Shown here: positions 24,697-59,234 of the stretch, one piece after another
Layout of the letters: every line of letters begins with the position of its first letter
Numbering within the stretch: the stretch's first letter is position 1
Assembly: GCA_965220995.1 (NCBI GenBank)
Contig: CBDCRL010000001.1
Coordinates: forward strand, 66,623-130,622
Length of the DNA stretch: 64,000 nucleotides
From: Acidimicrobiia bacterium
Lineage (GTDB): Bacteria; Actinomycetota; Acidimicrobiia; Spongiisociales; ZC4RG35
Direction of reading: 5' to 3'
Made by a program: the position numbers and the translations under genes
The notes under the pieces: generated by a model
Database searches by the model: none
What the model was told of the DNA's origin: nothing
The model's input: only the letters and a program-made list of their open reading frames with translations

Positions 24697-25869
24697 TCAG
24701 GAAAACCCGATGTTCTCCCCGGGGGCAAGGACCCGGAATACCTCTTCGGCCACCCACCGCTTGGAGCGACCGGGTACACCCGCCACCTCTCGAATCAGTC
24801 CGGCTTGCTCAAGCCGCCGCAGATGGTTCAAGGCGCTCTGATTTGTGATGCCCAGATGTGCCGCCACCTGGCCGGCCACCAGCACCGGGTTGTGAAGCAG
24901 TATGTCCACCACTTCTATGGCGCGTGATCGGCCTCCGGTCAACCTGGCTCGGTATTTCTCCCTCAGGTCAGCCAAGACCTCGGCCTGACGGACCGCTTCG
25001 GTGGCTTGTTCCAGGACTCCTTCCAAGAAAAAGTTGATCCACTCTGCAAAGGACCCCTTTTCTCGCGACATTTGAAGATGGTGGTAATACGCACTCCTTC
25101 TTCGCTCAAAGTAGGGGCTGAGCTGGAGCAGCGGGTTGACCAGCAGTTTTCGATCAGACAAGAGAAACGTGATGAGCAGTCGTCCGACTCGTCCGTTCCC
25201 GTCAAGGAAGGGGTGAATCGTCTCAAACTGATTGTGGACCAGGGCAATCTGGATCAGTGGTGGGATAGGCGCCTGCGAATGTACGAACCTTTCCAAGTCG
25301 CTCATAGCCGCCACCATCTCAGTGGGGGGTGGAGGGACAAAGGTGGCCCGTTCCAGAGTGCAACCGGGGGGGCCGATCCAGTTCTGAGTTGTTCTGAGTT
25401 CGCCCGGGCGTTGCGCCTGCCCTCGGACATCAGATAAGAGAATGGCGTGAATCTCGCACAGGAAACGCGTCGAGATCGGTAGCGTCTGCAAGCGATCAAG
25501 GCCATACTCCAGGGCACGGACATAGTTGATCACCTCCCGTAAAGGTTCCGGCTCGTCCCGACGCGCATAGGCATCGAAGACATCCGATAAGGAGGCCTGT
25601 GTCCCTTCGATTCTGTTGCTGGCGGTGGCTTCTCGGGAGATGTACGGGTTTGGCAGCAGATAAGGATTGGAAAGCAGTCGTCCCGATCCGGCCAGTCGCC
25701 CCAGAGCCCGATCCGCCTCGGACAGCAGAAGCAGAGTGGCGGCGGGCAGATCAATGGACTCGGGTAGCGGCGCCGGGTGGTAGGCCCAGTAGCCGTGGGG
25801 TCCTGGCCTCTTGGCGACCCGCCCGAGGGAGGAAGCTGCAAAGTTCTTTGGGTTCACACCCATAAGCAT
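24697..25869 (-). CDS. Fic family protein with an N-terminal inhibitory motif and C-terminal wHTH
   Basis: HPFLDGNGRVGR; SNRIEG matches (S/T)xxxE(G/N); FVPPP. Confidence 0.93.
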   Translation of the reverse strand: MLMGVNPKNFAASSLGRVAKRPGPHGYWAYHPAPLPESIDLPAATLLLLSEADRALGRLAGSGRLLSNPYLLPNPYISREATASNRIEGTQASLSDVFDAYARRDEPEPLREVINYVRALEYGLDRLQTLPISTRFLCEIHAILLSDVRGQAQRPGELRTTQNWIGPPGCTLERATFVPPPPTEMVAAMSDLERFVHSQAPIPPLIQIALVHNQFETIHPFLDGNGRVGRLLITFLLSDRKLLVNPLLQLSPYFERRRSAYYHHLQMSREKGSFAEWINFFLEGVLEQATEAVRQAEVLADLREKYRARLTGGRSRAIEVVDILLHNPVLVAGQVAAHLGITNQSALNHLRRLEQAGLIREVAGVPGRSKRWVAEEVFRVLAPGENIGFS

Positions 25870-26028: not shown

Positions 26029-26970
26029 ATGGATAAACAATGGCAACCCATCAAGCCTCTTGATCCGGCGGTGGCGGAGACTCTCAGAGGAGATTTGACG
26101 GCATTGGATCGTCTTCATGCAACTTGGCGAGACTTCGCCGACTCAGTGGATGAAAGCCACCGGACTTCCTTGAGACGCCGGACGCTCCGAAGACACGCCA
26201 TCGAGACCGGCATCATCGAACGCCTGTATCAGATCGACGGTGAGACAACCGAGACCCTGGTAGTAGAAGGTTTCAACCCGGAAGTTGTGGCACGAGTTGA
26301 CAGTGCTCTGTCCGACGGCGTATTGGAGATGATCGAGTCCCAACTGGCGGGACTGGACATGGTCACCGAATACATTCGGCAGGGCCATCCGCTCACCACC
26401 TCCTTCATCAAGGAGCTGCATGCCCTGATCACCCGCACCCAAAGGTTTTACGAGGCCACCGACGCATTGGGAAGGCCGGTAGAGACCCCTTTGATTCACG
26501 GGAAGTTCAAGACCCTCGCCAACAATGTGCGCCTGGCGGACGGATCGCTTCTGGAGTTTGCTCCACCCGAACAGGTCGACGGCGAAATTGAAAGGTTGGT
26601 GGCGGGGTTCAAAGACATGAGCAAAGCACACCCTGTGGTGTCTTCGGCCTGGCTGCACCACCGCTTTGTCCAGATCCATCCCTTCCAGGACGGCAACGGA
26701 CGGGTGGCGAGAGCGTTGACATTTCTCTCCCTGGTAAGCAATCATTACCCGCCGCTGGTGGTGGACCGCACACGGCGGGACGCCTATCTGGATGCGTTGG
26801 ACAGGGCCAACGAAGGAAACCTGGCGCCGTTGGCAAAGCTGTTCACCAGATTGACGATACGTTCGATCCGCTGGGAAATGGAGAAACCCGGACCACCGGC
26901 CGGTAATGTCGCGGCACGCCCCGGTGAACTGCACGACACGTCAATCCAGGTATCCCCTTTTGGTTGGTAG
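26029..26970 (+). CDS. Fic family protein, possibly C-terminally truncated
   Basis: HHRFVQIHPFQDGNGRVAR and AIETGIIE; ends in a poorly conserved tail abutting the next gene. Confidence 0.88.
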   Translation: MDKQWQPIKPLDPAVAETLRGDLTALDRLHATWRDFADSVDESHRTSLRRRTLRRHAIETGIIERLYQIDGETTETLVVEGFNPEVVARVDSALSDGVLEMIESQLAGLDMVTEYIRQGHPLTTSFIKELHALITRTQRFYEATDALGRPVETPLIHGKFKTLANNVRLADGSLLEFAPPEQVDGEIERLVAGFKDMSKAHPVVSSAWLHHRFVQIHPFQDGNGRVARALTFLSLVSNHYPPLVVDRTRRDAYLDALDRANEGNLAPLAKLFTRLTIRSIRWEMEKPGPPAGNVAARPGELHDTSIQVSPFGW

Positions 26971-28865: not shown

Positions 28866-30188
28866 TCAGGCTGTCACCACCTCACCGCCCTTGTACACCG
28901 CGGAGATCCGTTGGGTGTTGGTGATGTTCTCCAGAGGATCCGCGTCCAGAACCACCAGATCGGCCAGCTTGCGCTTTTCCACCGAGCCCAGTTCGTCGCC
29001 CTGGCCCAACAGATCTGCCGCCCGGCTGGTGGCGGCCACGATCGCATCCAGTTCCGAAAAGCCACAACCTTCCACCAGCAGGCGCAGTTCCTCGTGCATG
29101 CTGTGCCCGGGCACCACGTACGGGTTGGTGAGGTCGGTTCCCGCCGTGACGTTGACTCCCCCTTCCTGGGCGCGCCCGATGAACTCCATCTGATTGCGAA
29201 ATTCCACCGGCGCCTGCTCCCAGTCGGTCTCGCTGTAGTCGAACGGGTATGCGTACTGGCCCCACTGTTCCCGGACCGGTCCCGGCATCTCGTCGAGACC
29301 CGGCGGATTGACCGCTTCGGGCGTGTTGCCCGTCAGGATGGCCTGAGAGAGGGTGAGAGTGGGGGTTATATAGGTGCCCCGCTCCGCCATCAGAGCGATC
29401 AGGCCATCGGCCAGGTCCGACTGCGGATCGATGAATCGCCAGGGCTGAAAGCCGACCAGCGGGTCCAAAATCCGGCCCGTCAGGGCATTGAGTTCTTCCT
29501 TTCGCTCCTCGGGCACCAGTTCTCTCCCGATTCGAACGTGTTCCAGAGCGTCCACCCCCACCGTAACCGCCTCTTCCACCGTCACCATGTGGCCGACGTG
29601 AGCCGAAACCCGCACGCCCCGGCGATGAGCTTCGGACACCACCGCCCGCAGCACCGGAAGCCGCGCCCACACATACACCTTCAGAAAGTCCATGCCCTGG
29701 TCGATCAGTTTGGACGCCTCCCGCCGGGCCGACTCCTCGTCGTCGATGATGGCCAGCCACCTCCACGGCGCGGGAGGATCGGCCGGTCCGTCCAGGATGA
29801 CACCGGCGCCGAAAAAGCGAGGCCAGTCGGCCCGGCCCGCCTTGAAGGTGGAAAACACCTCGTCGGGATCAAAGTTGCCGGTGTCCCGAACCGTGGTCAC
29901 GCCATGACTCAGCAAAGTGGTCATGAACAGGTTCGCCAAAGACTTCGGGTCCTCCACCTGCAGGAAGGAATTGTCGGCCAGCACCCCCACATGGACATGA
30001 CAGTCGATCAGACCCGGGATAACCGTGGATCCGGAGATGTCCGTCACCTCCGCCCCGGAAGGAACTTCCCACTCTCCCCGCCGAAACACCGCATCAATGC
30101 GGTCCCCCTCTATCAAAATCACCGCGTCGTCGATCGGGTCCCTACCCGTACCGTCTATCACCCTTCCTCCCACCAACGCCTTCCTCAT
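28866..30188 (-). CDS. Amidohydrolase family protein
   Basis: PGLIDCHVH, GVTTVRD, DFLKVY, AGTD and GSVEKRKLADLVVL. Confidence 0.9.
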   Translation of the reverse strand: MRKALVGGRVIDGTGRDPIDDAVILIEGDRIDAVFRRGEWEVPSGAEVTDISGSTVIPGLIDCHVHVGVLADNSFLQVEDPKSLANLFMTTLLSHGVTTVRDTGNFDPDEVFSTFKAGRADWPRFFGAGVILDGPADPPAPWRWLAIIDDEESARREASKLIDQGMDFLKVYVWARLPVLRAVVSEAHRRGVRVSAHVGHMVTVEEAVTVGVDALEHVRIGRELVPEERKEELNALTGRILDPLVGFQPWRFIDPQSDLADGLIALMAERGTYITPTLTLSQAILTGNTPEAVNPPGLDEMPGPVREQWGQYAYPFDYSETDWEQAPVEFRNQMEFIGRAQEGGVNVTAGTDLTNPYVVPGHSMHEELRLLVEGCGFSELDAIVAATSRAADLLGQGDELGSVEKRKLADLVVLDADPLENITNTQRISAVYKGGEVVTA

Positions 30189-41090: not shown

Positions 41091-41756
41091 TCACACGCCG
41101 GTATCCAACTCATCAACCTGTTCGGGTGTGGCAACCACCCAGTGGGCGCCGCCCTTGATTGCTTCTGCTATCCCAGAGGAGGATATATCCCTCCAGACTT
41201 CGGCGATTCTGGTTAGTGTCCCGGGTTTTCCCACTTCCTGGTTTCCCGACACCTGGACCACCACCCCCACCTCCCGCGCCGGGAACAGTATCCCCCCGGC
41301 GCCGGCCCGAACAGCCAGCCTGGTCAGCCGGGAAACCTGGCTTCCGGGAGTGTCGGAGATGCCTACCCCTTTCAGGTCCTCATCGCCGGCCCACCCTGCC
41401 TGCGTGGCTGAAACCACCACCGACAAATCGGAGTATCCCGCCGTCTCCGCCCGGGAGGCTTCGATGACCTTGCGGCCCGCCAACCCGGAGATACTCACCC
41501 ATCGGGCGCCCAGCTTGCCCATTCTCGCCACCGCCCGGGCCACCACCCGGGGATGATCCAAAATACCCAGATCGGCCAGCACCGGTTTTCCCAGGGCCCG
41601 TAGCGCCCCCACCAAGATGGGGCCGCGGCCCAGCAGCAAATCGACCCCCACCGCAAAACCTCCCACCCTTTGCGGCATCCCGGAGGCGATTCTCATCGCT
41701 CTCTCCGCTCCGCCTTCCCCCATGCGCACCAGCACCTTATCGGTCAGAGGATTCAT
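41091..41756 (-). CDS. PyrF (OMP decarboxylase)-like protein lacking the catalytic lysines
   Basis: Positioned carB-X-mihF. Motifs FAVG (usually xKVG), ADLGILDHP (usually xDLKxxDIP) and [11 protein letters not shown]. Confidence 0.7.
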
Positions 41757-44700
41757 CCGCCCCAGTCCTGGAGACTCCGCGGCGCCGTGACACCCTCAAG
41801 ATCCGAACTCATAATCTCCGATGCCGCCCGGGCCGCGGCCAGGGTCGTCATGTAGGGTATTCCCCTTTGCCGGGCGGCGCGAAACAAGTCTCGTCCATCA
41901 AAGCGGCCGATGTCGCGGCCATAGGTGTTGACCACCAGGGACACCTCCCCCGACTCGACCATCCGCACCGCCTTGCGGCGACCCTCTTCCCCGGGTGGAA
42001 GCGATTCCACCTGCGGGTCATTCCATTGTGCCGCCGTGCGGTGATCGGCCACCTGGGTGAGTCCGTTCGACGCCCAGGCCGAAACCAGCGACCGCCCCTC
42101 GTCTATGTCGGATTCCCCCAGCAATATCAACACGGTTCCCGAGTTGGTCAACCGGTCGCCCGCGCCCAGCAGCGCCTTTCCGTAGGCGGTCTTCCAGTCG
42201 CTCGCCACCCCCATCACCTCACCGGTGGCTCGCATCTCCGGACCCAGCACCGGATGAGAATCCGGGAAGCGCTCCCAGGGAAGCACCGCCTCTTTAACCC
42301 CCACCATCTTCGGGGCTTCCGCCTCCCGGTAGAGGCCCTCGGACCGCAGTTCACGCAGCGAGGCCCCCATCATCACCCGGGCCGCCAGCTTGGCGAGCGG
42401 CAGTCCCCGCACCTTGGAAATGAAAGGCACGGTGCGAGATGCCCGAGGATTGGCCTCAAGCAGATACACATCCTCACCCTGAACTGCATATTGAACATTG
42501 ATCAATCCTCTCACTTCCAGCGCCTCCGCCAACCGGGCGGTGATCTCATTAATGGTTCGGCGAGCCGCAGCATCCAGAGTGCGGGGCGGGGTGATGCAAG
42601 CAGAATCCCCGGAGTGGACTCCGGCTTCCTCAACGTGCTCCATAATCCCTCCCATCAGCAACTCCCGCCCGTCGTAGACCGCGTCGACGTCGATCTCGAT
42701 CGCCGACTCCAGGAATGAATCTATGAGAAGCGGAGCCCCCGCCAGATCGGCCTCTTCGACGTTGCCGTACACCTCATCCAGATAGCCTTCCAGCTCCTCG
42801 GGGCCGGTGAGAACCTCCATCCGTCTCCCGCCCAGCACGAACGATGGCCGCGCCACCACCGGGAAACCCATCTCGGTGGCCACCCGGACCGCCTCCGACC
42901 GGGACCGGGCCAATCCGTGACGAGGCTGCAGAATGTCCAGCCGCCGGCACAGTTGCGAAAACCTTTCCCGGTCCTCCGCCAAATCGATGGAGGCGGGGGA
43001 AGTGCCCGCGATGGGAGTCCCGGCCTCGGCCAGCCGTCGGGCAAGATTCAACGGAGTCTGGCCACCGAATTGGACGATCACTCCCACAGGTTGCTCGGCG
43101 GCCACCACATCCAGCACGTCTTCGGTGGTCAGGGGCTCGAAATAGAGGCGATGGGAGGTGTCGTAGTCGGTGGAAACGGTCTCGGGATTGCAGTTGACCA
43201 TCACCGTTTCGTATCCCACCGCCCCCAACGCGAAGGCGGCCTGCACGCAGCAGTAGTCGAACTCGATACCCTGCCCGATCCGGTTGGGCCCGGCGCCCAG
43301 CACCACCACCCGGGGACGAGTGGCCGGCGGCACCTCGTCCTCATCCTCGAATGTCCCGTACATATACGGTGTCAGAGCCGCGAATTCCGCCGCGCAGGTG
43401 TCCACCGTCTTGTAGGTGCGACGCACCCCGCGGGCCAGTCTTTCCCGGCGGATGTCCTCTTCCCGGCGCCCCCACAGAAACGCCAGTTGGGCGTCGGAGA
43501 ATCCGTACCGTTTGGCGTCGGCCCACAGGTCATCCTGGGGACCTCGGATCAAAAGCTCCTCGCGAATCTGCACGATCTCCGCGATTTGATGAGCGAACCA
43601 CGGATCGTAGTGGGTAAGGCCGCACACCCTCTCGGACGACCATCCTCTGCGCAGGGCCTCGCCCACCGCCACCACCCGGTTGGGGGAGGGTGTCGCCAGC
43701 AATTCGGACAGTTGATCTTCGGCCAACTCCTCCAAACGCCCGGAAGCCCGGTCGGCCCCCAACCCCAATCGGCCCGTCTCCAGGCTGCGCAACGCCTTCT
43801 GCAGGGCTTCGGGGAAGGTACGGCCGATGGCCATGGACTCCCCCACGCTTTGCATGGAGGACCCCAGGCGTCGAGGACTTTGGGGAAACTTGGCGAAATC
43901 GAAACGGGGCGCCTTCACCACCACGTAATCAAGAGCCGGTTCGAAAGAAGCGGGAGTCTGGCCGGTTATGTCGTTGGTGATCTCATCCAATGTGTAGCCC
44001 ACCGCCAGCAGAGCCGCGATCTTGGCGATGGGAAACCCGGTGGCCTTGGAAGCCAGGGCCGACGAACGGGAAACCCGGGGATTCATCTCGATCACCAACC
44101 GACGCCCGGTGCGAGGATCCACCGCGAACTGGACGTTTGAGCCGCCCGTCTCCACGCCGATGGCCCGCAACACCGCGATGCCGTCATCGCGCATCTCCTG
44201 GTACTCCCGGTCGGACAGGGTCTGGATGGGGGCCACCGTAATCGAGTCGCCGGTATGCACTCCCATGGCGTCCAGATTCTCTATCGAGCAGATCACCACC
44301 GCATTGTCGGCCCGGTCCCGCATCACCTCCAGTTCGAATTCCTTCCAACCCTCCACCGATTCCTCCACCAGAATCTCCGACACCGGGGAGGCGGCCAAAC
44401 CCCGGCGCGCCACCAACTCGAATTGACGGGCGTCGTGGGCCATCCCGGTTCCCCCTCCCCCCAGGATGTATGAGGGTCGGATCATCAAGGGAAAGCCCAG
44501 CCGGGAAGCGATCCGTCGGGCGTCAGCCATCGATCGGGCATATCCCGCCCGCGGGGTTTCCAGGCCGGCGTCCGACATCACCTCCCTGAACCTTCCCCGA
44601 TCTTCGGCCCGCTCGATGGCCTCCATCCCCGCTCCGATCAGTTCCACCCCATATCGGCCGAGGGTTCCCCTGCTCACCAATTGGGCGGTGATGTTCAGTG

Positions 44701-44988: not shown

Positions 44989-46626
44989 CTACGCCCCCCG
45001 TTCCATCAGGTCCAAGAAATCATCGAACAGCCCCAACGCATCGCGGGGCCCCGGAGCAGCCTCGGGGTGATACTGCACCGCAAAGGCGGGAACATCCCGA
45101 CACTCCAAGCCCTCCAGGGTGCCGTCGTTGAGATTCTGATGAGTGGGCGCCACCGCGCCGAATTCGGATTCGACCACCGACGGCAAGAGATCCGGGCTGA
45201 CCAGACCTTCCCGGGACGGCGGCGCACCGTCGGCCAGGGACCACAGATCCACCGCGAACCCGTGATTCTGGGAAGTTATCTCCACCCTCCCGTCGGAAAG
45301 TCGGCGCACCGGATGGTTCCCTCCATGGTGGCCGAAGGCCAGTTTGTAGGTTCGCGCCCCCAACGCCAGGCCCATCACCTGCTGGCCGAGGCAGATACCG
45401 AACACCGGGACCTTCCCCAGAACGCCCCTGACGGTGTCGATCACCGTCGCAAGCGGCTCGGGGTCGCCCGGACCATTGGACAGGAACACCCCGTCGGGAC
45501 GGGCGGCCAGCACTTGGGAGGCGGTTGCGTCACAGGACATCACTTCGACCTCCAATCCCCGCTCCGCCAATTGCTCCAGGATGTCACGCTTGATGCCCAG
45601 ATCGATCGCCACCACCTTGCCCCTCGAGGAGCCTTGGGCCTCCACCAGGTACGACCGGGTGGTGGACACTTCCGACGCCAGGTCCTGTCCCGCCATCACC
45701 GGCGCGGAAGCCGCCCGTGCGGCCAACTCATCGGCCGCCGCCGCGTCGGAAATGGCGGCGGGCATCGCCCCCTGCTCCCGGATGTGACGGGTCAATCGGC
45801 GGGTATCCACGCCGGTGATCGCCACCAACCCCTGGCGTGAGAGGAATTCCGACAGTTCCCCTTCCGCTCGCCAACTCGAATACCGATGGGAATAGGATCG
45901 CATGACCACCCCCGCCGCGGCGGTGGCGCCGGCTTGGGAATCCAGGTCGGTCACCCCGTAGTTGCCGATGTGGGAGGCGGTCATCACCACGATCTGCCCG
46001 GCGTAGGAGGGGTCGGTGAACACTTCCTGATATCCGCTCATGGCGGTGTTGAACACCACCTCCCCCACCGCGGTCCCCGAGGCGCCCACCGACCACCCCG
46101 CGAAGACCTCCCCGTCGGCGGTGACCAACAGGCCGGGACTTGACCTGCGGCGGCGCCTCGTGGCAAAGGGTCCCCGGTCGACCCCGGCGGTGGTCGGGTC
46201 GGGTCGGATCCATTTGGCCAAAGTGCCCAGCACCCCGTTGATGAACCGACTGCTGTGCTCGGTGGAGAACTCTCCGGCAATTCGCACCGCCTCGGAAATG
46301 ATCACCGCCACCGGGGTCCGGGAATGGTGGCGCAGTTCGTAAACCGCCATCCGCAGAATGGCCCGATCAACCGGCGGCAACCGGGAAGACTTCCAATCCC
46401 GGGCGGCCCTTTCCACGATCAAGTCGATCTGCTCCATTTCCCCGAGGACCCCTCGCACGATCCGGCGAGCCTTGGGAAGTTTTCCCTGGAGGAGACCGTC
46501 GGTATCGGAGATGGGGGCTCTTGACATCTCCATTTCATAGAGCACCCCCAGGGCCTGATGGCGGGGGTCGTCAGAAGAACTGTCGAAAGGCCCGGCGGTC
46601 TCCTCCGATCCGGATGGGCCCCTCAC
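44989..46626 (-). CDS. nusB-carA: In-frame fusion of transcription antitermination factor NusB (N-terminal ~140 aa) and carbamoyl-phosphate synthase small subunit CarA
   Basis: NusB: [26 protein letters not shown]. CarA: [32 protein letters not shown] and QYHPE. No stop codon between the two. Confidence 0.9.
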
Positions 46627-47180
46627 ACGCGAGTGAGATAGGCGCCGGTGCGGGTATCAACCCTGATGCGGTCGCCCTGTTCCACAAACAGCGGAGTCTT
46701 GACCGTGATGCCGGTCTCCACCTCCACTTCCTTGGTGGCGCCCGACACCCGGTCTCCCTTTACTCCGGGCTCCGCATAGGTGACCTCCATCTCCACCGAG
46801 GGAGGCAGTTCCATTCCGATCGGCCGGTCGTTGTGAAAAGCAATAGTGAGGGTCATGGCCTCCACCAGGTATCCCGAGTCCTCTCCGACCTCGTCCTCGC
46901 TCAGTGAGAACTGGGAATAGTCCTCCAGGTTCATGAAATGAAAACCGAGATCGTCCCGGTAGAGATACTGGTGATCCCGGCGGGAGATGATTGCCCGGGG
47001 AACGTCCTCGTCGGCCCGGAAGGTGCGATCCAGCACCTGCCCGGTCTCGGCGTTCTTGAGCTTCATGCGGACAAACGCCTTGCCCTTGCCCGGCTTGACA
47101 TGCTGGTAGGTGACGATGCTGAACACCCCGTCCGGAAGCGCCAGGGCCATACCGGGGCGGACATCGTTGGTGGAGATCAT
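46623..47180 (-). CDS. efp: Elongation factor P
   Basis: HVKPGKGKAFVR and PGVKGD...VKTPLFV..GD.IRVDTRTGAY. Confidence 0.98.
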   Translation of the reverse strand: MISTNDVRPGMALALPDGVFSIVTYQHVKPGKGKAFVRMKLKNAETGQVLDRTFRADEDVPRAIISRRDHQYLYRDDLGFHFMNLEDYSQFSLSEDEVGEDSGYLVEAMTLTIAFHNDRPIGMELPPSVEMEVTYAEPGVKGDRVSGATKEVEVETGITVKTPLFVEQGDRIRVDTRTGAYLTRV

Positions 47181-49938: not shown

Positions 49939-50096
49939 GCCTCAAGATGCTACCGCCCAGGACACCCCCCGCCTTTCACGGCCCATGCGGGAAGAACCCC
50001 GACCCGAAGACTCGGCCCTTTCCTATGCTTGTGGCGGAGCCGACTGCATCGAAAAGGCGCAAAGTGCACACAGCCAGGGAGAATCGTGGTGGACCG

Positions 50097-50843
50097 GTGG
50101 TGGAATGGGGGTACCGCGGGCCGGGCAGACCGGAAAACTGGGGGTCGCTGTCAAAGGACTACCAGACTTGCGCCACGGGCCGACAGCAATCCCCGATTGA
50201 CATCACCGGATACCAGGTCAGAACCGAAAACCTCCGCAAGATCGGGTTCTCATACGTCACACCCGCACAGCGCATACGAAACGACGGCTTGTTCGTTCAC
50301 ATCGATTTTCCGCCGGGCAACGCCTTCCGAGTTGACGAGCGTTCCTATCAACTGACCTCCGCTCACTTCCATTGTCCGTCCGAGCACCATGTGGACGGTG
50401 TCAGCTATGCGGCAGAACTGCACCTGGTGCATGCCGACGACAATGACAGCCTGGCCGTGGTGGGCCAACTGTTCGAGTTGGGTTCCCCCGGTGCACTCAT
50501 CCAAATGGTTTTGGATGCTGTCCCTCCGGTAGACCAAAAAGCCACCAACCCTCCCGACCTTGGCGCTCATGACTTTCTGCCGCCCCACCTCACCTATTTC
50601 CGGTACGACGGTTCCAAGACCACCCCCCCGTGCGACGAACCGGTCGACTGGTACGTGATAAGCCGACCCAGAACCATCTCAACCAGCCAGGTAAACAGCC
50701 TGCTCCAACGAAGCGGCGGCCCCAACAACCGCCCCATCCAACCCATCGGAGACCGTTGGATCGTATTGGTGGATCTTCGGAAATTAGTGGGGAGTGGGGA
50801 ATCCATTGATTGTGGGGGAGGGTCCTCCATAATCGGGTGCTGA
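50097..50843 (+). CDS. Alpha-class carbonic anhydrase; C-terminus extended by read-through into the IS
   Basis: WGY, QSPID, HFH..SEH..ELHLVH, GSKTTPPC and RPIQP. The original end IVLVR* is reconstructable from the 3' flank. Start approximate. Confidence 0.92.
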   Translation: MVEWGYRGPGRPENWGSLSKDYQTCATGRQQSPIDITGYQVRTENLRKIGFSYVTPAQRIRNDGLFVHIDFPPGNAFRVDERSYQLTSAHFHCPSEHHVDGVSYAAELHLVHADDNDSLAVVGQLFELGSPGALIQMVLDAVPPVDQKATNPPDLGAHDFLPPHLTYFRYDGSKTTPPCDEPVDWYVISRPRTISTSQVNSLLQRSGGPNNRPIQPIGDRWIVLVDLRKLVGSGESIDCGGGSSIIGC

Positions 50844-50870
50844 AAGCAGTCGCATCTGAAAGGAGGACCC
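50806..50870 (+). promoter_or_regulatory. Putative transposase promoter and RBS-sequestering inverted repeat
   Basis: TTGATT-16 bp-CATAAT (50806-50833); GGGTCCTCC (50820-28) is complementary to GGAGGACCC (50862-70), which contains the SD. Confidence 0.55.
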
Positions 50871-50871
50871 T

Positions 50872-52167
50872 GTGGAGACTGATGGTAGGCGTATGTGTGA
50901 GGTGTTGGTCGGGTTGGGTGACGTGGACTTGGTAGGGGTGGAGGAGCTTTCGGGTGACCGGTTGAGGGTGACGATCAGATCGGGCGCTTTTCGTCCAGTA
51001 TGCGATGAGTGCGGTGGTGGGGTGTGGTCGAAGGGCTATCGGACGGTGGGGTTGGTGGATTTGCCGGCGTTTGGGCGGCCGGTGCGGTTGCGGTGGCGGA
51101 AACGTCGTTGGATGTGTCCTGATGGGGAATGCGGCGTGGGGTCGTTTGTGGAACAGGACGAGTCGGTGGCGCCGGAGCGGGCTTTGTTGACGTCTCGGGC
51201 GGGGCGGTGGGTCACTTATCAGGTGGGCCGTTTGGGGCGTACTGTGTCGGAGGTGGCCGCCGAGTTGGGGTGTGATTGGCATACGGTGAACCAGGAGACC
51301 GTCCGATGGGGAAAGTCGCTGTTGGAAGCCGACACCGCCCGGTTCGGGCGGGTGGAGGCGGTGGGAGTGGACGAGACCCTGTTCTGGAAGAAGGGCCGGT
51401 GGCGTACCAAGCAGTGGTGCACGTCGGTGGTGGATGTCGGTGGGTGTCAGTTGTTGGACATAGTGCCTGGTAGAACCGTAAAAAGCGCGGCTGGTTGGTT
51501 CCGGAACCAACCAGAGGGGTGGCGTGAGGCGATCAAGTGGGCGGTGTTGGACTTGTCCGGCCCTTATCAGGTGGCCTACGACCAGGTGTTGCCCCACGCC
51601 TTTCAGGTGGCTGACCCGTTTCATGTCATCAGGTTGGCTAACCGCACCGTCGATCAGGTCCGATGCCGGGTGCAGAACGAGACACTGGGACACCGGGGAC
51701 GCAAACGCGACCCGCTGTATCGCATACGACGGCTTTTGATAATGGCCCATGAAAGGATCGACAGCCACGGCGAATCCCGCCTCCGGGGCTTGTTACGGGC
51801 TGGTGACCCCTACGGAGAGGTACGGGATGCCTGGTCGGCTAAGGAAAGCGTCCGGGACATCTACCAGATCGGAGACCCACAACTGGCTTGGGAGTTCACC
51901 CAGCAGCTGGCCTCGGATCTGCAGGACCGGTCACTCCCTCCAGAGGTGAACCGCCTGGGACGGACCATCAGCAGGTGGGCCACCCAGATCACCAACTGGC
52001 ATCACTCGAAAGTGACGAACGGACCCACCGAGGGACTGAACAACCTGATCAAACGGATCAAACGAGCAGCATTCGGTTTTCGGAACTTCGACAACTACCG
52101 AATCCGAGCACTCCTCTACGCCGGAAAACCCAACTGGAAACTCCTCGCAACCATCACTCCCCACTAA
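50872..52167 (+). CDS. ISL3 family transposase
   Basis: Protein identical to copy 1 except one residue (QPEG versus QPAG). Confidence 0.96.
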   Translation: METDGRRMCEVLVGLGDVDLVGVEELSGDRLRVTIRSGAFRPVCDECGGGVWSKGYRTVGLVDLPAFGRPVRLRWRKRRWMCPDGECGVGSFVEQDESVAPERALLTSRAGRWVTYQVGRLGRTVSEVAAELGCDWHTVNQETVRWGKSLLEADTARFGRVEAVGVDETLFWKKGRWRTKQWCTSVVDVGGCQLLDIVPGRTVKSAAGWFRNQPEGWREAIKWAVLDLSGPYQVAYDQVLPHAFQVADPFHVIRLANRTVDQVRCRVQNETLGHRGRKRDPLYRIRRLLIMAHERIDSHGESRLRGLLRAGDPYGEVRDAWSAKESVRDIYQIGDPQLAWEFTQQLASDLQDRSLPPEVNRLGRTISRWATQITNWHHSKVTNGPTEGLNNLIKRIKRAAFGFRNFDNYRIRALLYAGKPNWKLLATITPH

Positions 52168-52624
52168 TTTCCGAAGTACCGTATTGGTGCGCTGAACCGG
52201 GCCGGCGAACCTGAACGACTCACCGGTAAAAGGCCACCCCACCCGGTGTCGATCACCGGCGGTCGTGGGATGATCTGGCCGAGCTTCGTGACAAAATGGG
52301 GAATAGTGAACATACAAATTGTGGAATAGTGCCTTGAGAATTTGCGGATTAGCAGAATTCCGGGCCGGGATCCTGCTCCACACCGGACCACAGTCCGTGA
52401 CGGTAGGCGACCGACTCCACCTCCGCCCCATCAGCATGCTCTGGTCCAACCCGAACTGATGTGAATCCGGCAGGGTACAAGGATGGTATCAGCTCGAACA
52501 CTTCGAAGACCTATTCCGAACAATCCCTGACCTTCCGGTCGGGCGACGCGCGATAGCGGAGTTGAGAGCAATCGGGCACCTCTGCCCAGGCGCATCACGG
52601 ACATTTGCAGTGCAGTGGGTGCTT

Positions 52625-53290
52625 TCAATGATCGCCTACCCCAACTCCCGGGATGGTTTCCAACAGGAGGTACATGCCTGATGATGGGTTGTTGTCCGGA
52701 AACCGTTTTCCCTCGCTCTCATGCATTTGTTCCAGTAACCGAGCATGTCTCACTGCCTGCCCGCGCCTGGGCATGTACATTGCGCCGTCCACCCTCTTTT
52801 CTCCGGGTTTGCTTCCGTCATATTGCTTGCGTATGCGATCAGCGTCCTTCTTGGTGAGCCATTGGCGACAGTGCTCAAAGTGGAGAGCAAGCCAAACCTC
52901 AAAGCACGGATTTGATACGGCAGTATGGATACCGACCTTTTTTGCCAGGGCCAACGCTTGGTGGAGGTCCGGATGATTGTCCGGCCACTCCACATCAAAG
53001 AGACACCAGATTTCGTCAATTTCTCTGCTCTCGTAAGTGCTGCGTTGTAAGGCGTCCTCTGCTGCTTTGACCAGCTTGAGTGGGGGCGTGATACCGATTG
53101 TCCCTTTGCTTACCTGGATTTCCACCGCAGCCACCTGATGAACCGAAGGGTCTCCCTTCAGCGCCCTTATGTAGTCCGGTTCCGTTACATCCCCTTCGCA
53201 AAACACCAGCAATGTTTTCTTGGGCTTGCGTATCCCGACTTTGCGTCGATTTCGTCTTCTGTGAACCCTTTGTCGAGAACCCCTGGCCAT
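52625..53290 (-). CDS. RloB family (TOPRIM-like) protein
   Basis: LVFCEGDVTEPDYI, WCLFDVE and SNPCFEVWLALHFE; C-terminal NPSS.MY.L. Confidence 0.9.
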   Translation of the reverse strand: MARGSRQRVHRRRNRRKVGIRKPKKTLLVFCEGDVTEPDYIRALKGDPSVHQVAAVEIQVSKGTIGITPPLKLVKAAEDALQRSTYESREIDEIWCLFDVEWPDNHPDLHQALALAKKVGIHTAVSNPCFEVWLALHFEHCRQWLTKKDADRIRKQYDGSKPGEKRVDGAMYMPRRGQAVRHARLLEQMHESEGKRFPDNNPSSGMYLLLETIPGVGVGDH

Positions 53291-54531
53291 CAGAATCCCC
53301 TGACAGACAATCCGATGGTGTTGCGAAGAGCCGCCTGGTCGGCCTCGGGAATGCCCCCAAATCTACCTTGCAGATATGCCTTCTCGAGATTCACCGACCT
53401 TCTTACTCTCTCGGTTCCGAATTCGGCAAGGGCTGTGAGGCTTGAAACCCCGTCGGTTCCTTTCTCGGTGAACCACACCTCGTCGCGATTCAACACTTCC
53501 AGTAGTGATGGGTCGTGAGTTGTGAAGATCAACTGAGCATTATGGGGATTGGTCAGCGGATCCTCGAAGACTTCGATCAGTTGACGGGACAGCTTAGGAT
53601 GCAGGCTTGCGTCGATCTCATCAAACAGCAGGACCCGACCTCCTTTGAGTGCTTGAAGCATTGGCGCCAATGTGCGGAACCAGGCCTGCGTACCAGCGGA
53701 CTCCTCCCTGAACGGAATCCCGTACTCCTCCTCCCCGATATGGCGCTTGAATCGCAGTTCGCGACGGGAGGCATCAGGAGGCCTCTCCCCCTCAGTCACC
53801 TCAGTGAATTCCACATCTACGATGGTCGGATCCGCCCACTGCAACATGCCCAACGCAACCAGCCGATCCTGATCTGTGGACGCGCCGCCCGGTTTCCCCC
53901 TGTTGGCAAATAGGCCGAGAGAAGACCCCCCACGAAGATAAGGACGCATCCTCCACACTCCCATGGGAATCATTCCCGAGATTATTCGACCAGCCTTCTC
54001 GACATTTGGCATCCGAAAACGGGTGGCCGCCGAGAGAGCCAAGGTAGTTGGACTCATCAGCTCTCTGACGGCGCCGGCGCCACTCAAACCCCTACGGAAA
54101 CGGATGCCATCGTCTTCCCGCTCGAAAAGGGTTCGCCTCCTGCGCTGCGGATAACTGAAGAGACTTTCATATCGCACTTTCGTATCATCGACCTCAAGCC
54201 GGTATTCGTACTCAACCCCATCAGCAACGAGAGACACATCAAAAGCCGATGGCCTGGTAGGACCATCCCTAAAAATATGGGGGGCACGTGGAACATACTC
54301 GTCCCAGCCACGAAGAGATCGACCGACAGCCGTGGACAACCACGTGATCGCGTGTAGGAGATTGCTCTTTCCAGAGGCATTCGGGCCGTAGATTCCTCCG
54401 ACCGTCAGGACCTGTTCGGTGAGGAGCTCGAACTCTCGGACCGCCGGACGATCGGTGTCAACGGCGACCATCGAGAATTCGACCCTATCGAGAAAAGAAC
54501 GGTGATTTGAGACCTGGAAACTGAGCAACAC
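53290..54531 (-). CDS. AAA_21/ABC-type ATPase (RloA/AbiLi-like)
   Basis: MLLSFQVSNHRSF, IYGPNASGKSN, ESAGT, DEIDASLHP, QLIFTTHD and YLQGRFGGIP; overlaps the rloB start. Confidence 0.92.
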   Translation of the reverse strand: MLLSFQVSNHRSFLDRVEFSMVAVDTDRPAVREFELLTEQVLTVGGIYGPNASGKSNLLHAITWLSTAVGRSLRGWDEYVPRAPHIFRDGPTRPSAFDVSLVADGVEYEYRLEVDDTKVRYESLFSYPQRRRRTLFEREDDGIRFRRGLSGAGAVRELMSPTTLALSAATRFRMPNVEKAGRIISGMIPMGVWRMRPYLRGGSSLGLFANRGKPGGASTDQDRLVALGMLQWADPTIVDVEFTEVTEGERPPDASRRELRFKRHIGEEEYGIPFREESAGTQAWFRTLAPMLQALKGGRVLLFDEIDASLHPKLSRQLIEVFEDPLTNPHNAQLIFTTHDPSLLEVLNRDEVWFTEKGTDGVSSLTALAEFGTERVRRSVNLEKAYLQGRFGGIPEADQAALRNTIGLSVRGF

Positions 54532-54900: not shown

Positions 54901-56811
54901 TCAGTTGGTGGGGACCTTGAGAATCCAGTCGATGTGGATCAGATCGGGGTTGGTGAGAGACCGCCCGTCGGCCTGGGGTTGGCGCTTGTTGAGGGCGAAG
55001 ATTTCTGGCCAGCGGAGTTCGGATCCCAACAGGGAGCGGGCTATCGAGCGTAGAGTGTCGCCGGGTTTCACCCGGTAGGAGCGGGTTGACTCGAGCATCG
55101 TGATCCGCCCGCCGCCGTCGGTGGGATAGGCCGCGGCGGTGATCTTCCCGCCCAGGTCCAGGGCGACGTAATCGGCCAGGGCCTGCTGGTAGGTGACCGG
55201 AAGCTGGGTGGTTTTGACATCACCGAGGGGATAGCAATCGCCTCCCCGAGCCAGGAAATCCACCGTTGCCAAAGTCACGGGATCGCCGGGAACCACCGCG
55301 CCGTCCTGGACGATCTCCGTGCCGTCGGACAGGGTCACCTTCCGAACCCGCTGGCCGGGGGATCCCACAATCGCACAGTCGGCGGACCGATCCACCTCCT
55401 GAGCGGCGGCTTCGGGGGCGTACTCGAAGGTGAACCCCGACACCTGGGCAAACTGACCCCCCGCCCCGGGCAAGCGGCTCACCGCCTGCTCCAGCAGGAG
55501 CCGGAAGGTTTCCCGAGGGACCTCCCCCACCATCACGTAGTTGTGAAATACGGCAATATCCCAGGTCATCCCCGTGGTGAAATCCCCGGCGGGGATCACC
55601 GAGTCATTGCGGATCCCTCCCCCGTTGATCACCGCCACCACCGGTGAGGAGGCGCCGAAATCGGGGGCAAGATGTGAAGCCCGGCTACGGATGGCGTCTG
55701 CCAAAAGATTCCCGACGTTGGTGTCGGTGGTGCGCACCATCGAACGACGACCATCCAGATCGACCTCACTCACCCCGATCACCTGGGTGTCCAGGGCCGC
55801 CACCGCCGCCGCCAGCGGGTCGATCACCGCCGCCTGCACCGTGGGATCTGCAACGGTGTCCAAACCCACTCCCACCGAGCGACCCTTCGCTCCGACCACG
55901 GCGCCGTCGGAATCGAAAACCACCGTAAGCTCGCCGATGCATCGGTATCCGCCGGGAGCGGTGATCACCGGGACCTGGGCGCCGGAGGCATCCGCCACCA
56001 TCAGCGGGTATGGACCGGCAGGTTCTTCATCGGGCATGCACGTATCGCCCTGGTTGGCCAACAGATCATCCCCACCGCCGGCGATCACCACGTCCACCCC
56101 CGTGAGTTCGGCCACCAATGCCACCTCCTCAGCCACATCCTGAAGATGGCTGACCAGGATGATCTTGTCAACTCCCTCACCGGTCAACTCGGACACTGCC
56201 TCGGCCACCGCCGGCGCCACTTCCGAGACCAACACATTCCGGGGACTGGAGATGTTGGCCAGCCAGGGCGTCACCGCGCCAATCACTCCAATCTTCTCAT
56301 CCCCGATCTCGATCACCACGCTCTTGGCAAGCAAACCGGCCTGCTCCAGAGCAGAGAGAGCGGGCTCACCGGAAAAGTCCAGGTTGGCGGCGAGAAACGG
56401 AACAGGCGGTGTGAAACCCTCGATGAACCGGGCAGTCACATCCGGCCCAAGGTCAAAATCATGGTTGCCCAGGGCCATGGCGTCGTAAAGTCCGCTCAGA
56501 GCTACCGAGTCATAAAGCGGGGCGCCTTGGCGGGCGAGCGAGACGCCCAGTTCCTGGGAGGCGAGGAAATTGTCCCCGGAAGTGAGAGTGATCACCGCTC
56601 CGGTGGCGTCAGCTTGGAGTTGTCGCATGATCGTCGCAAACCGAGCTACGCCCGGATATCCGGCATCCGCGTCTTCCAACAGCTTGGATTCCCCGTCGTT
56701 GTTGTGGAGAATCACCAAAGTGAACTCTCCGTTTTCGGCATCCCCGTCCGCGGAAACGACGGGCGTCACCAACAGAAGACCCAACAACAAGGTCAGAGCC
56801 ACAAGACGCAT
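54901..56811 (-). CDS. Secreted 5'-nucleotidase/PhoA-type metallophosphoesterase with a C-terminal LysM domain
   Basis: Signal peptide; LHNNDGES, SGDNF, LGNHDFD and NGGGIR; tail YRVKPGDTLRSIA..LG...RWPEIFALN. Confidence 0.88.
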   Translation of the reverse strand: MRLVALTLLLGLLLVTPVVSADGDAENGEFTLVILHNNDGESKLLEDADAGYPGVARFATIMRQLQADATGAVITLTSGDNFLASQELGVSLARQGAPLYDSVALSGLYDAMALGNHDFDLGPDVTARFIEGFTPPVPFLAANLDFSGEPALSALEQAGLLAKSVVIEIGDEKIGVIGAVTPWLANISSPRNVLVSEVAPAVAEAVSELTGEGVDKIILVSHLQDVAEEVALVAELTGVDVVIAGGGDDLLANQGDTCMPDEEPAGPYPLMVADASGAQVPVITAPGGYRCIGELTVVFDSDGAVVGAKGRSVGVGLDTVADPTVQAAVIDPLAAAVAALDTQVIGVSEVDLDGRRSMVRTTDTNVGNLLADAIRSRASHLAPDFGASSPVVAVINGGGIRNDSVIPAGDFTTGMTWDIAVFHNYVMVGEVPRETFRLLLEQAVSRLPGAGGQFAQVSGFTFEYAPEAAAQEVDRSADCAIVGSPGQRVRKVTLSDGTEIVQDGAVVPGDPVTLATVDFLARGGDCYPLGDVKTTQLPVTYQQALADYVALDLGGKITAAAYPTDGGGRITMLESTRSYRVKPGDTLRSIARSLLGSELRWPEIFALNKRQPQADGRSLTNPDLIHIDWILKVPTN

Positions 56812-56915
56812 CAGATGTCCCCTGTCAGGCTTATAGACGAAAATCGCAGACTCCTTTCAGACTGGTTCCGCTCAGACTATTCCCCCGGACCAGGACACCG
56901 GTTGGCTCGGCCGGG

Positions 56916-58106
56916 TCAGGCCCCTCCTGCCGCTCCTGCCACCTTTCTGATGTCCGTCTTGCTTGTGGCGCGGCGTGGCATCCAACTGATCGCCTTCTTG
57001 AATCCCTCGTTCAGCAGGAAAAAGGTCGTGAGAGAATAGACGGCGACGACGAACGCCACTATCAATAGCCTCGCGGTGTTGGTTTCCTGCACCGCCCGTT
57101 CGGCCAGGTACCCCAGCCCGGAGGGGAAACCCAGGAACTCGGCCACGATCACCAGCGACCAACTCCCGCCCATGGCGAGCAGCAGAGCGGTGCGCAATTC
57201 CGGAATCGACCCGGGCACTATCACTTTGTAATAGGTGTGTAAGCGGGAGGCGCCCAGGGTACGGGCGCTTTCGATGTACCGGTCGGGCACGTTGGCAACC
57301 GCATTCATGGTGGCCACCACCAGGATCGTCCACACCCCGAAGGCTATGTAGATGGCGATACCAAAGAAGGTGGAGCCCACCACCAACCGCAACCAGGGCG
57401 CCGCCACCAGGAGGGGGATCATCCGCAGAAAGTTCATGGGCGCCCACGCGGTTTTGCGCACCGCCGACCAGTAGGGAAGGGCCAGACCGGTCAGTAGACC
57501 GAGCGTGAGACCGATCACCATGCCACACAGCAGCCTGACAAAGGTGGCGGCGGAGTGATAAGTGAACGCCAGGAATACGGCCGGCCAGGTCGCCTCACCA
57601 CGAAAGATGGGAAGAGGCGCCAGCCCCTCGAGATTGAGGGTCACAAACCCAAGGTCAAACCCGCGGACGGTCCAGAATCTGGACATTCCGAACAACGTGT
57701 CACCGAACACGTAGTCCCATCCGGGAACCAGGGGATGCTCGAGAGTTCCGTGAGGCACAACATAGGACGCCACCTGCCAGGCCACGAGCAACACCACCCA
57801 GGAAATGAAAAAGAGCGGGTTACGGCGCATGCCGGCCCAGAGCATGGGCGGCCCCGCCGCTATCCCCCGCCCCGCCTTCACCAGACAGTCCCTGACCCGA
57901 CTGGTGCGGAACACGACCGGCCAGGCCCAGAACAGCACCAAGCCGGACACGATTAATGACCACGTGACGTTGATCACACCGTCGGCCTGTGTCCAGGTAA
58001 CGAAGGGAAGGCCTTCAGGCGCCTGAATCAGCATCCAGGTAATCAGGACAGCCCAGGTCACCCATCCAATCCAATAGAGGCTTCGGAAACGGGCAAGCCG
58101 ATTCAC
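56916..58106 (-). CDS. ABC transporter permease (SsuC/TauC-like) with an extended N-terminus
   Basis: EAA loop IESARTLGAS..HTY.KVIVPGSIP, IVAEFLG..SGLG and multiple TM helices. Confidence 0.85.
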   Translation of the reverse strand: MNRLARFRSLYWIGWVTWAVLITWMLIQAPEGLPFVTWTQADGVINVTWSLIVSGLVLFWAWPVVFRTSRVRDCLVKAGRGIAAGPPMLWAGMRRNPLFFISWVVLLVAWQVASYVVPHGTLEHPLVPGWDYVFGDTLFGMSRFWTVRGFDLGFVTLNLEGLAPLPIFRGEATWPAVFLAFTYHSAATFVRLLCGMVIGLTLGLLTGLALPYWSAVRKTAWAPMNFLRMIPLLVAAPWLRLVVGSTFFGIAIYIAFGVWTILVVATMNAVANVPDRYIESARTLGASRLHTYYKVIVPGSIPELRTALLLAMGGSWSLVIVAEFLGFPSGLGYLAERAVQETNTARLLIVAFVVAVYSLTTFFLLNEGFKKAISWMPRRATSKTDIRKVAGAAGGA

Positions 58107-58115
58107 ACTGTCCCC

Positions 58116-59066
58116 CTACAGACCCAGCCGGCGACCGGCCTCGGACCACTTGGTGAAGGAGCGTATCGCCAGAACCACAATCCCGTCGACCACCACCGCC
58201 AGCACGCCGAAGAAGAGAATCAGAGAGATCACCGCGGTCGGACCGTCCGGGAAACCCGTCCCGTAACTCCACATGCGGATCAGAAATCCGCCTCCCATCT
58301 GTGGTCCCAGCACCTCCACCAAAGTCCCCAAACCCCAGGCGCCTCCCAAAGCGATCCGAAAACCTCCGGCGATCTCCGGAATCGTTCCCCGCAGATAAAT
58401 CCATCTGAAAATAGTGCGGCGGTCGCCTCCCATGGTGAGGGCTGATTCAATGATCCCCACCGGTATGTTCTCGGCCGCCCGGCGACTGAAAAAATACATG
58501 AGCAGAGCGGTGTACAAGGCAACCACCCCGATGGTGGCCAGCAGGGGATTGTCGATCCCGAACCAGATCACGAAGAAGGGCGCGGCGATGAAAATCGGGG
58601 TGGTTCCGAAGAAACCGGCCACCGGGGTGACCACGTCGGCGATCCACGGCAGGAGCAGTGTGCTCAGCCCAACCGTCAAGCCGATCACCGTCCCCAGCGC
58701 AACTGCGATCAGAATATTGCGGATGGTCCACGCCAGGTGGAGAATGTACCCGAAACAGTGGTCGGGGAGACCGGACATCCTGCCCCTTTTGAACTCCAAC
58801 TCCGCCACTAGGTCCGGGCAGGCGTTAACAAACCGCTGCATCATCGGCTCACTGAAAAACAGGTTCTCCCAAAAATGGGTGACGGCGTCGAGCGGCGTGG
58901 GAATGAGAGAGAAAAGGGGCGAGAAGGGCGCGGCCGACAACTGCCAGAACAACAGAAAGAGCACCATCCCCACCACCAGGTGCATGAAGTGGGAGACTTG
59001 GCGGCGCCGTCTGTTGCGGCGCGCCGTCGCTCTTATTTCAAGAACATCGGTGGCTGTGGTGGTCAC
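58116..59066 (-). CDS. ABC transporter permease (SsuC/TauC-like)
   Basis: IESALTMGGDRRTIFRWIYLRGTIPEI. Start set at GTG 59066, since the longer ORF would overlap the tRNA. Confidence 0.85.
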   Translation of the reverse strand: MTTTATDVLEIRATARRNRRRRQVSHFMHLVVGMVLFLLFWQLSAAPFSPLFSLIPTPLDAVTHFWENLFFSEPMMQRFVNACPDLVAELEFKRGRMSGLPDHCFGYILHLAWTIRNILIAVALGTVIGLTVGLSTLLLPWIADVVTPVAGFFGTTPIFIAAPFFVIWFGIDNPLLATIGVVALYTALLMYFFSRRAAENIPVGIIESALTMGGDRRTIFRWIYLRGTIPEIAGGFRIALGGAWGLGTLVEVLGPQMGGGFLIRMWSYGTGFPDGPTAVISLILFFGVLAVVVDGIVVLAIRSFTKWSEAGRRLGL

Positions 59067-59150
59067 TGTACCTCTTTGTCGCCCTCGTAGCCTTGGGAGT
59101 GACAAGAAAACCCGATTAGGCCTCTGACCTGGGGCAACATGCCTCAACGG

Positions 59151-59234
59151 TGTCGGAGGAGGGACTTGAACCCTCACCCTCCTTGGAGGACTAGGCCCTC
59201 AACCTAGCGCGTCTGCCATTTCCGCCACTCCGAC
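59151..59234 (-). tRNA. tRNA-Leu (GAG)
   Basis: GTCGGAG/CTCCGAC acceptor stem, TGGCGGAAATGGCAGACGC D-arm, CTAGG-TTGAGGG-CCTAG anticodon arm, long variable arm and GGTTCAAGTCC. 3' end reads CCG, so CCA is not fully encoded. Confidence 0.96.

Follow-up and report, generated by a model that had tools for sequence, protein, structure and literature searches.

Fusion of NusB and CarA in one reading frame

The 64-kb window analysed here (a stretch of 64,000 nucleotides from contig CBDCRL010000001.1 of an Acidimicrobiia bacterium) carries on its minus strand a single open reading frame (ORF) of 545 codons, with a GTG start, in which the antitermination factor NusB, a linker and CarA, the glutaminase subunit of carbamoyl-phosphate synthase (CPS), follow one another without interruption. 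The fusion gene is placed directly after efp, the TGA stop of which overlaps its GTG start (GTGA); together with the 5-nt gap to carB and a pyrF-like gene that overlaps the carB stop, this gives the locus the appearance of a tight operon. The same placement after efp was found in the fused loci L081 and L082, and for nusB in all eight of the nearest unfused relatives. Coordinates are collected in Table 1.

When the predicted product was compared with Pfam, NusB (PF01029) was matched over residues 21-138 (91.5 bits; cut-off 23.1), CPSase_sm_chain (PF00988) over residues 167-292 (164.9 bits) and GATase (PF00117) over residues 340-539 (140 bits). Both halves also passed the cut-offs of their NCBIfam equivalogs, TIGR01951 (nusB; 104.4 bits versus 88.35, residues 22-138) and TIGR01368 (CPSaseIIsmall; 441.4 bits versus 307.35). 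In alignments to solved structures the NusB part was complete to its C-terminus, residue 143 of the query corresponding to residue 137 of 139 in E. coli NusB, whereas the CarA part began at query residue 165, equivalent to residue 5 of E. coli CarA, and ran to the end. The triad C412 (in GICLGQQ) and H520/E522 (in YHPE) corresponds to C269 and H353/E355 of the E. coli protein and was invariant in 42 sequences. An AlphaFold2 model showed an all-helical NusB, with seven helices between residues 21 and 140, and a folded CarA, and gave residues 144-160 a pLDDT (predicted local distance difference test) score below 50. A first-pass annotation of this DNA, made by a model from the letters, had described a complete NusB domain and a complete CarA with catalytic Cys and His; Pfam, the equivalogs and the structure alignments all bear this out. 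The best-supported reading is that the gene encodes one predicted 58-kDa bifunctional polypeptide, with a complete NusB and a complete CarA.

Residues without homology to NusB or CarA are restricted to positions 144-164, a linker of 21 residues; the same annotation was right that a linker is present, although its length had been put at about 25, and the structure alignment assigned the C-terminal 'IRP' to the end of the NusB family. None of the three minus-strand frames contains a stop across the junction, as the annotation had stated. It had also found no ATG, GTG or Shine-Dalgarno (SD) sequence for the CarA frame, and this was likewise confirmed: the linker holds no in-frame ATG or GTG, its sole candidate codon being a TTG (Leu167), and no conserved start codon or SD sequence was present at the CarA start across 14 orthologues. 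A separate CarA made from this TTG, near 46127, had been raised as a possibility; it found no support, the position reading CTG, CTT or CTC in most of the 14 orthologues and the adjacent Val codon varying between GTC, GTG and GTA. The (GGTCG)3 repeat, previously placed within the linker, was found where described, but it spans the end of NusB and the start of the linker. It matched once in the window and in none of 100 shuffles, and it is absent as a conserved feature from the orthologues; we consider it probably incidental. A scan for promoters and terminators returned nothing above chance near the junction.

Table 1. Position of the fusion gene, its parts and its operon neighbours in the window
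Feature	Position	Strand	Basis or remark
nusB::carA fusion ORF	44989..46626	-	545 aa, with the stop codon included; frame kept in 13 species representatives
NusB domain, residues 21-143	46198..46566	-	Pfam, TIGR01951, PDB alignments (1eyv, 1tzt, 3d3b), AlphaFold2 helices 21-140
Linker, residues 144-164	46135..46197	-	disordered, variable; short Arg run alone kept within clade A
CarA, residues 165-545 (small-chain N-domain plus class-I glutamine amidotransferase)	44992..46134	-	TIGR01368, 1bxr_B/1cs0_B alignment
CarA catalytic codon, Cys412	45391-45393	-	aligned to E. coli CarA
CarA catalytic codon, His520	45067-45069	-	aligned to E. coli CarA
CarA catalytic codon, Glu522	45061-45063	-	aligned to E. 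coli CarA
TTG codon, Leu167	46126..46128	-	candidate internal CarA start of the first-pass annotation
(GGTCG)3, (CGACC)3 on the coding strand	46192..46206	+	spans NusB end and linker start; encodes IRPDPTT
efp (elongation factor P)	46623..47180	-	Pfam EFP_N/EFP/Elong-fact-P_C
carB, 1076 aa	41753..44983	-	Pfam; begins 5 nt past fusion TAG stop
CarB C-terminal MGS-like (allosteric) domain, degenerate	~41756-42205	-	Pfam score
pyrF-like pseudoenzyme, 221 aa	41091..41756	-	ATGA overlap with carB

Conservation of the fusion and loss of its former neighbours

In the protein database the fusion was represented by about 35 clusters, which share 73-100% identity, measure 543-551 aa and without exception comprise NusB plus CarA; they were drawn from NCBI, ENA, JGI and Logan assemblies, and we refer to this group as clade A. 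Thirteen species-level genomes, several of them complete chromosomes of 1.35-3.3 Mb, carry the fusion in one uninterrupted frame. The complete chromosomes of clade A include OY762464.1, OZ219757.1, OZ253443.1, OZ242375.1 and OZ242000.1. CarB is 84-92% identical within the clade, and in L081 and L082 the gene neighbourhood is identical to that of the window. Another member, L100, in which the gene was called as two ORFs (P0121 and P0036), was considered as an unfused member of the clade and rejected; its frameshift lies inside CarA and not at the junction, its contig has many other broken genes, and the ORF that begins with NusB continues past the linker into CarA.

Across clade A all indels in the linker are multiples of three, and frame 0 is free of stops in 14 of 14 sequences, whereas frame +2 contains stops in 11 of 14. 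The ratio of nonsynonymous to synonymous substitution rates (dN/dS, by the Nei-Gojobori method on clade A genomes) was 0.22 for NusB, 0.125 and 0.11 for the two domains of CarA, and 0.74 for the linker, which thus appears to evolve almost neutrally. Given the value of 0.22 and the invariance of family-typical residues, the NusB half may still work in S10 and boxA binding and in antitermination of ribosomal RNA (rRNA), and the values of 0.11-0.13 argue that the CarA half is functional as a glutaminase with CarB. Because the gene recurs in independent assemblies, including complete chromosomes, and both halves are under purifying selection, the fusion is real and not an error; the first-pass annotation had already argued that a single-base error would not easily account for it. 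The fusion is maintained across a whole clade of Acidimicrobiia.

In order to place the fusion among its relatives, we took the eight nearest unfused loci (L001-L007 and L101), the CarA proteins of which are 61-67% identical to that of the window. All eight share the order efp-nusB-[hairpin]-pyrR-pyrB-pyrC-carA-carB-pyrD-pyrF. The hairpin, CCTTTAAG..GGTCCnGyGAGGCC..AAAGGAG, occurs just upstream of pyrR exactly once per locus in each of the eight, and its 3' arm includes the pyrR SD sequence. It was located by motif search. Among Rfam families the hairpin scored best with RF00515, the PyrR binding site, at 27.2 bits (E 0.033), which is below gathering; with the gathering threshold applied, Rfam gave no such site for six relatives. 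The motif is missing from all 22 fused loci. Two side observations concern the relatives themselves: in L003 (~7150-7230) a tandem heptamer, GCCGTCT, is repeated about nine times between nusB and pyrR, just upstream of the hairpin, and the nusB ORFs of L004 (~6649-7206) and L006 (~6506-7144) are apparently extended at the N-terminus by about 60 aa.

The absence of pyrR, pyrB and pyrC from their usual place, which had been claimed from the window, was confirmed by tblastn with the relatives' proteins: no homologue of PyrR, PyrB, PyrC or PyrD was detected in the window or in 16 orthologous loci (~10 kb on each side; ~350 kb in total), although the first three genes are present in all eight unfused relatives. 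The pyrD gene, located between carB and pyrF in all eight, is absent from clade A. The flanks retained in the window (efp, nusB, carA, carB, pyrF-like, mihF-like, gmk, rpoZ) keep their order. Because eight of the eight nearest unfused relatives have this gene order and the fused frame is kept in 13 or more species, the comparison supports the earlier suggestion that nusB was joined to carA by a deletion, which would have removed pyrR-pyrB-pyrC. An amidohydrolase gene elsewhere in the window (28866-30188, minus strand; Amidohydro_1, 440 aa) is not a PyrC orthologue by tblastn.

The source of the linker is less plain. The C-terminal tails of NusB in the relatives vary from 3 to 24 residues and are the likely source of part of it. 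When the linkers of 14 orthologues were translated in all frames and compared with PyrC C-termini, only background scores were obtained. L001 shows RRRRR ahead of carA when read in the carA frame; this was considered as a source and is treated as coincidence, its spacing being different and the run missing in other relatives. Every member of clade A has an R-R-R run about five residues ahead of CarA. Many unfused CarA proteins have basic residues at the N-terminus, and the run may simply have been inherited from the CarA N-terminus. The idea that it stands in for a lost Arg-rich motif at the NusB N-terminus was rejected; the unfused relatives are also without that motif, and many unfused CarA proteins begin with basic residues.

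What remains of the pyrimidine genes has also changed. In the PyrF-like proteins of clade A the motifs ALD, FKxG, DAKLHDIPNT, PGIR, DQ and IGR, which are kept in seven relatives, are lost in every member, DAKLHDIPNT being replaced by DLGILDHP or DLSLLARP, and the protein scores below the NCBIfam cut-offs. The ORF is nonetheless intact throughout the clade, with a dN/dS of 0.30; it is a constrained pseudoenzyme, predicted to be catalytically dead. In CarB, the C-terminal MGS-like domain (PF02142) scores 19.6 bits in the window (cut-off 24.1), over its C-terminal half only, and 19-22 bits in clade A as compared with 67-72 bits in the unfused relatives; in E. coli this allosteric domain has a nucleotide-sensing regulatory role. 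The earlier view that a dead PyrF and an altered MGS domain mark a rewired module is upheld by these comparisons. The 64-kb window contains no other pyr gene and no arg gene. A genome-wide scan for PyrB, in which none of 80 loci listed came from fused-clade chromosomes, is neutral either way; the loss of pyrimidine synthesis is read from the emptied locus and the dead PyrF.

A second fusion, a natural re-split and a proposed origin of the chimera

A library-wide HMMER search with residues 1-230 of the fusion identified a second group, clade B, through P0198, a NusB-CarA protein of 545 aa that is 45% identical to the query. The clade comprises about 30 protein clusters of 517-641 aa, with identity down to 46%, and its loci include that of P0198 (L102), L103 (on a chromosome labelled Ca. 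Hopanoidivoransaceae, Acidimicrobiales), L183 and L184; OZ241989.1 is a complete chromosome of this clade. The gene order is aroK-aroB-aroQ-pepQ-efp-nusB::carA-carB, followed by mihF-gmk; pyrD and pyrF are absent from the locus and the MGS-like domain of CarB scores 0-14 bits. Linkers of clade B are 28-80 aa long, low-complexity or repetitive, and share no cleavage-like motif.

In a distance-based (neighbour-joining) tree of CarA plus CarB over 1097 columns, clade A was monophyletic in 100 of 100 bootstraps, as was clade B, while a grouping of A with B was recovered in 0 of 100; each clade had its own unfused sister groups in this tree, and a tree of CarA alone was also built. The fusions are two independent events, because the clades were never monophyletic together and it is implausible that a lineage regained its pyr genes in the very place where they had been lost. 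One clade B locus, L185 (3564-5191), has since returned to two genes: a 52-nt deletion in the linker has left a separate nusB (146 aa) and carA (396 aa), with a GTGA stop/start overlap and an SD-like GGGAAGG upstream of carA.

We propose that a deletion released carAB from control by PyrR and uridine monophosphate (UMP) and left the chimera behind as a passive bifunctional fusion, a tolerated by-product of the dismantling of the pyr operon; of the explanations considered this is the probable one. The ancestor would have had the order efp-nusB-[PyrR-binding hairpin over the pyrR ribosome-binding site]-pyrR-pyrB-pyrC-carA-carB-pyrD-pyrF, and a deletion of ~2.8-3 kb that started at the 3' end of nusB and reached the first codons of carA would have eliminated the hairpin, pyrR, pyrB and pyrC and joined the two frames by chance. 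A second deletion would have removed pyrD; the catalytic residues of PyrF would have been lost and the nucleotide-sensing domain of CarB would have decayed. We infer that the lineage abandoned de novo pyrimidine synthesis and lived on salvaged pyrimidines, under which conditions its only CPS would have been repressed and inhibited, though the product, carbamoyl phosphate, would still have been needed, most likely for arginine. Once freed from PyrR and UMP, carAB would be translated with the constitutive efp-nusB unit, and the in-frame joining would have saved carA from needing a new ribosome-binding site; decay of the allosteric domain of CarB would fit the same logic of escape from pyrimidine control. 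The deletion, and not the fusion, was probably the selected event. The two halves would act separately, NusB on S10 and the boxA of the rRNA leader, CarA by docking on CarB and supplying ammonia from glutamine; the fusion would add no function and would persist as a harmless arrangement that is hard to undo.

That the linker serves as a passive tether is suggested by its near-neutral evolution in clade A, the free length of clade B linkers, the natural re-split and the existence of unrelated C-terminal fusions to NusB, although these observations fit such a role and do not prove it. The last are found in other actinobacteria (P0206, HAD-like; P0273 and P0313, GNAT-like; judged by eye), and NusB seems prone to fusions. 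The first-pass annotation had offered two functional options, a coupling of rRNA antitermination to nitrogen or carbamoyl-phosphate status and a tolerated passive fusion; the second is favoured here, and the first is disfavoured by the near-neutral linker, the 28-80 aa range of clade B and the re-split.

Several other explanations were weighed against the passive fusion. One chain might be translated and then yield separate working species, through cutting of the linker by a protease (at the Arg run, for instance) or through a weak internal start of CarA. The predicted disorder and exposure of the linker in the AlphaFold2 model, the R-R-R run some five residues before CarA in all clade A members, TTG or GTG codons at the CarA start in some of them, and the L185 split, by which separate proteins are evidently viable, would all suit such a process; yet the CarA start has neither a conserved start codon nor an SD sequence and its third positions vary freely, the linkers of clade B have no common cleavage-like motif, and the Arg run may be inherited, unfused CarA N-termini often being basic. 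Moreover, all 14 sequences keep the frame strictly across the linker, with stops present in the off-frames, which would be needless if CarA began internally. We regard separate species as unlikely. That the fusion reflects faulty assembly or sequencing, or a recent pseudogene, as the two-ORF call in L100 could suggest, can be practically discounted, given that the L100 frameshift sits within CarA on an error-rich contig and reads through from NusB, and that NCBI, ENA, JGI and Logan assemblies, complete chromosomes among them, independently hold the gene with both halves under purifying selection.

The fusion could also be adaptive in itself and have been selected twice by host-associated Acidimicrobiia, either because the status of nitrogen, arginine or carbamoyl phosphate would then bear on rRNA antitermination and on ribosome synthesis, or because a 1:1 dosage would be fixed. 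The same gene pair has indeed been joined twice, in lineages with isolate names that point to sponges or corals, and the fusion has been retained over a long divergence (in clade B down to 46% identity). However, a repeat of the event would be expected in any case, since every one of these operons has the same deletable pyr block with nusB on one side and carA on the other; in addition, the clade A linker is near-neutral, linker length in clade B is unconstrained, fission is tolerated in L185, NusB has been joined to other, unrelated downstream enzymes, and no mechanism is evident from the sequence. Adaptive fusion is accordingly rated as improbable, and marginally more so in the particular form in which tethering of NusB links rRNA antitermination to nitrogen and arginine metabolism, or sequesters NusB on the enzyme complex, as a regulatory solution found twice by host-associated Acidimicrobiia living on salvaged pyrimidines. 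Host association is itself judged from isolate names (RHO, SB0665, Plut) and from the presence of Candidatus Poriferisocius in the same family; SB0665 bins are listed among sponge Poribacteria in one paper. More improbable again, and by our estimate very much so, is a repurposed NusB domain, acting as a solubility, RNA-binding or regulatory module for CarA while a separate nusB elsewhere supplies antitermination. Reuse of a NusB-like domain is known from other enzymes, RsmB among them (weak NCBIfam matches), and would speak for such a role. Nevertheless, the domain is encoded where its orthologues are, directly downstream of efp, scores above the cut-off of the nusB equivalog and has a dN/dS of 0.22 with its family-typical residues invariant, and no stand-alone NusB was found on fused-clade chromosomes in a word-limited NusB-domain search.

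Some observations sit less comfortably with a passive by-product. The uncleaved 58-kDa chain is a prediction from the sequence, and the Arg run before CarA in clade A is conserved in a linker that otherwise varies. The lack of pyrB, pyrC, pyrD and pyrE was scored at the scope of the locus and the window, and that of a second nusB in the word-limited search; that carbamoyl phosphate goes to arginine is assumed, the window having no arg gene. Purifying selection on the dead PyrF means that the module may hold functions beyond a story of decay. Since the fusion arose twice, in lineages that resemble one another and are apparently sponge-associated, the fusion itself, and not only the deletion, could have been under selection.

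Other genes of the window and comparison with known systems

Two side observations may bear on the metabolism discussed above. A eukaryotic-type (alpha) carbonic anhydrase (49947-50843, plus strand) adjoins aroC and is divergent from the operon, and L100 has a fragment of the same family in the corresponding position; CPS uses bicarbonate as a substrate. A gene for a 5'-nucleotidase-family protein, followed by two ABC-transporter permeases (54901-59177, minus strand), would fit nucleotide scavenging in a pyrimidine auxotroph; in L100 the 5'-nucleotidase, too, adjoins aroC. Elsewhere, two inverted copies of an ISL3-family element with a 431-aa transposase (12789-14199, minus strand; 50770-52180, plus strand) are 99.93% identical over 1411 bp, and the element has probably been active recently. 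Next to one copy lies a RloB-like and AAA_21 ATPase pair (52625-54531, minus strand), a candidate module of the defence or abortive-infection type. Two divergent genes (24697-25869, minus strand; 26029-26970, plus strand) encode Fic-domain proteins, the first of which also has Fic_N and a helix-turn-helix domain.

No description of a NusB-CarA fusion was found in the literature, nor anything relevant on the pyrimidine metabolism of sponge Acidimicrobiia or the named family, and the fusion proteins are deposited as 'glutamine-hydrolyzing carbamoyl-phosphate synthase small subunit', so that about 65 database proteins are presently named only as CarA. Novelty lies in the architecture, in its having arisen twice and in the syndrome that goes with it; both parts are ordinary members of known families, and the fusion of operon neighbours is itself familiar. 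The locus offers a clean and datable case of the dismantling of an operon upon abandonment of a pathway, with two deletions, a dead but constrained enzyme, a decayed regulatory domain and a chimera, the same outcome having been reached twice and naturally reversed once. It also counsels caution in the use of 'Rosetta stone' links, in which a gene fusion is taken as a sign that its parts share a function. NusB belongs to the core of the rRNA antitermination complex and apparently tolerates being joined to a 41-kDa enzyme with a docking partner of 118 kDa. Pyrimidine auxotrophy and a UMP-insensitive CPS are predicted for two apparently sponge-associated groups.

Compared with NusB proteins of known structure (TIGR01951; PDB 1EYV of M. 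tuberculosis and the NusB-NusE complex 3D3B of E. coli), residues 1-143 of the fusion are full-length and all-helical, and their coding sequence directly follows efp, as it does in other Actinomycetota, but this NusB has no stop and runs into CarA; it is apparently the sole form of NusB in these clades and should dock on the 118-kDa CarB. Likewise, residues 165-545 resemble CarA (TIGR01368; E. coli CPS, 1BXR/1JDB) in aligning from E. coli residue 5, in keeping the triad and in the adjoining carB, and differ in lacking a start of their own, in the 164-residue N-terminal extension and in a partner whose allosteric domain is degenerate. PyrR acts as a translational repressor in actinobacteria such as Mycobacterium. 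Relative to the PyrR-controlled actinobacterial pyr operon (RF00515), the flanks of clade A keep the ancestral order, whereas the hairpin, pyrR, pyrB, pyrC and pyrD are absent and pyrF is, by its lost motifs, predicted to be catalytically dead. Proteins of the RsmB/Sun type, with a NusB-like N-terminal domain and a methyltransferase, illustrate that the NusB fold tolerates a large C-terminal enzyme domain; there, however, the NusB-like domain is an integrated RNA-binding part, in contrast to the unrelated jobs and free linker of the fusion. Arginine-specific CPS enzymes of bacteria and fungi can be uncoupled from pyrimidine feedback, and eukaryotes possess multidomain CPS proteins (CAD, URA2 and CPS1, the last matched in the structure search), in which a GATase-type subunit is similarly tolerated within a longer chain; these join enzymes of one pathway, whereas NusB-CarA joins a transcription factor to a metabolic enzyme.

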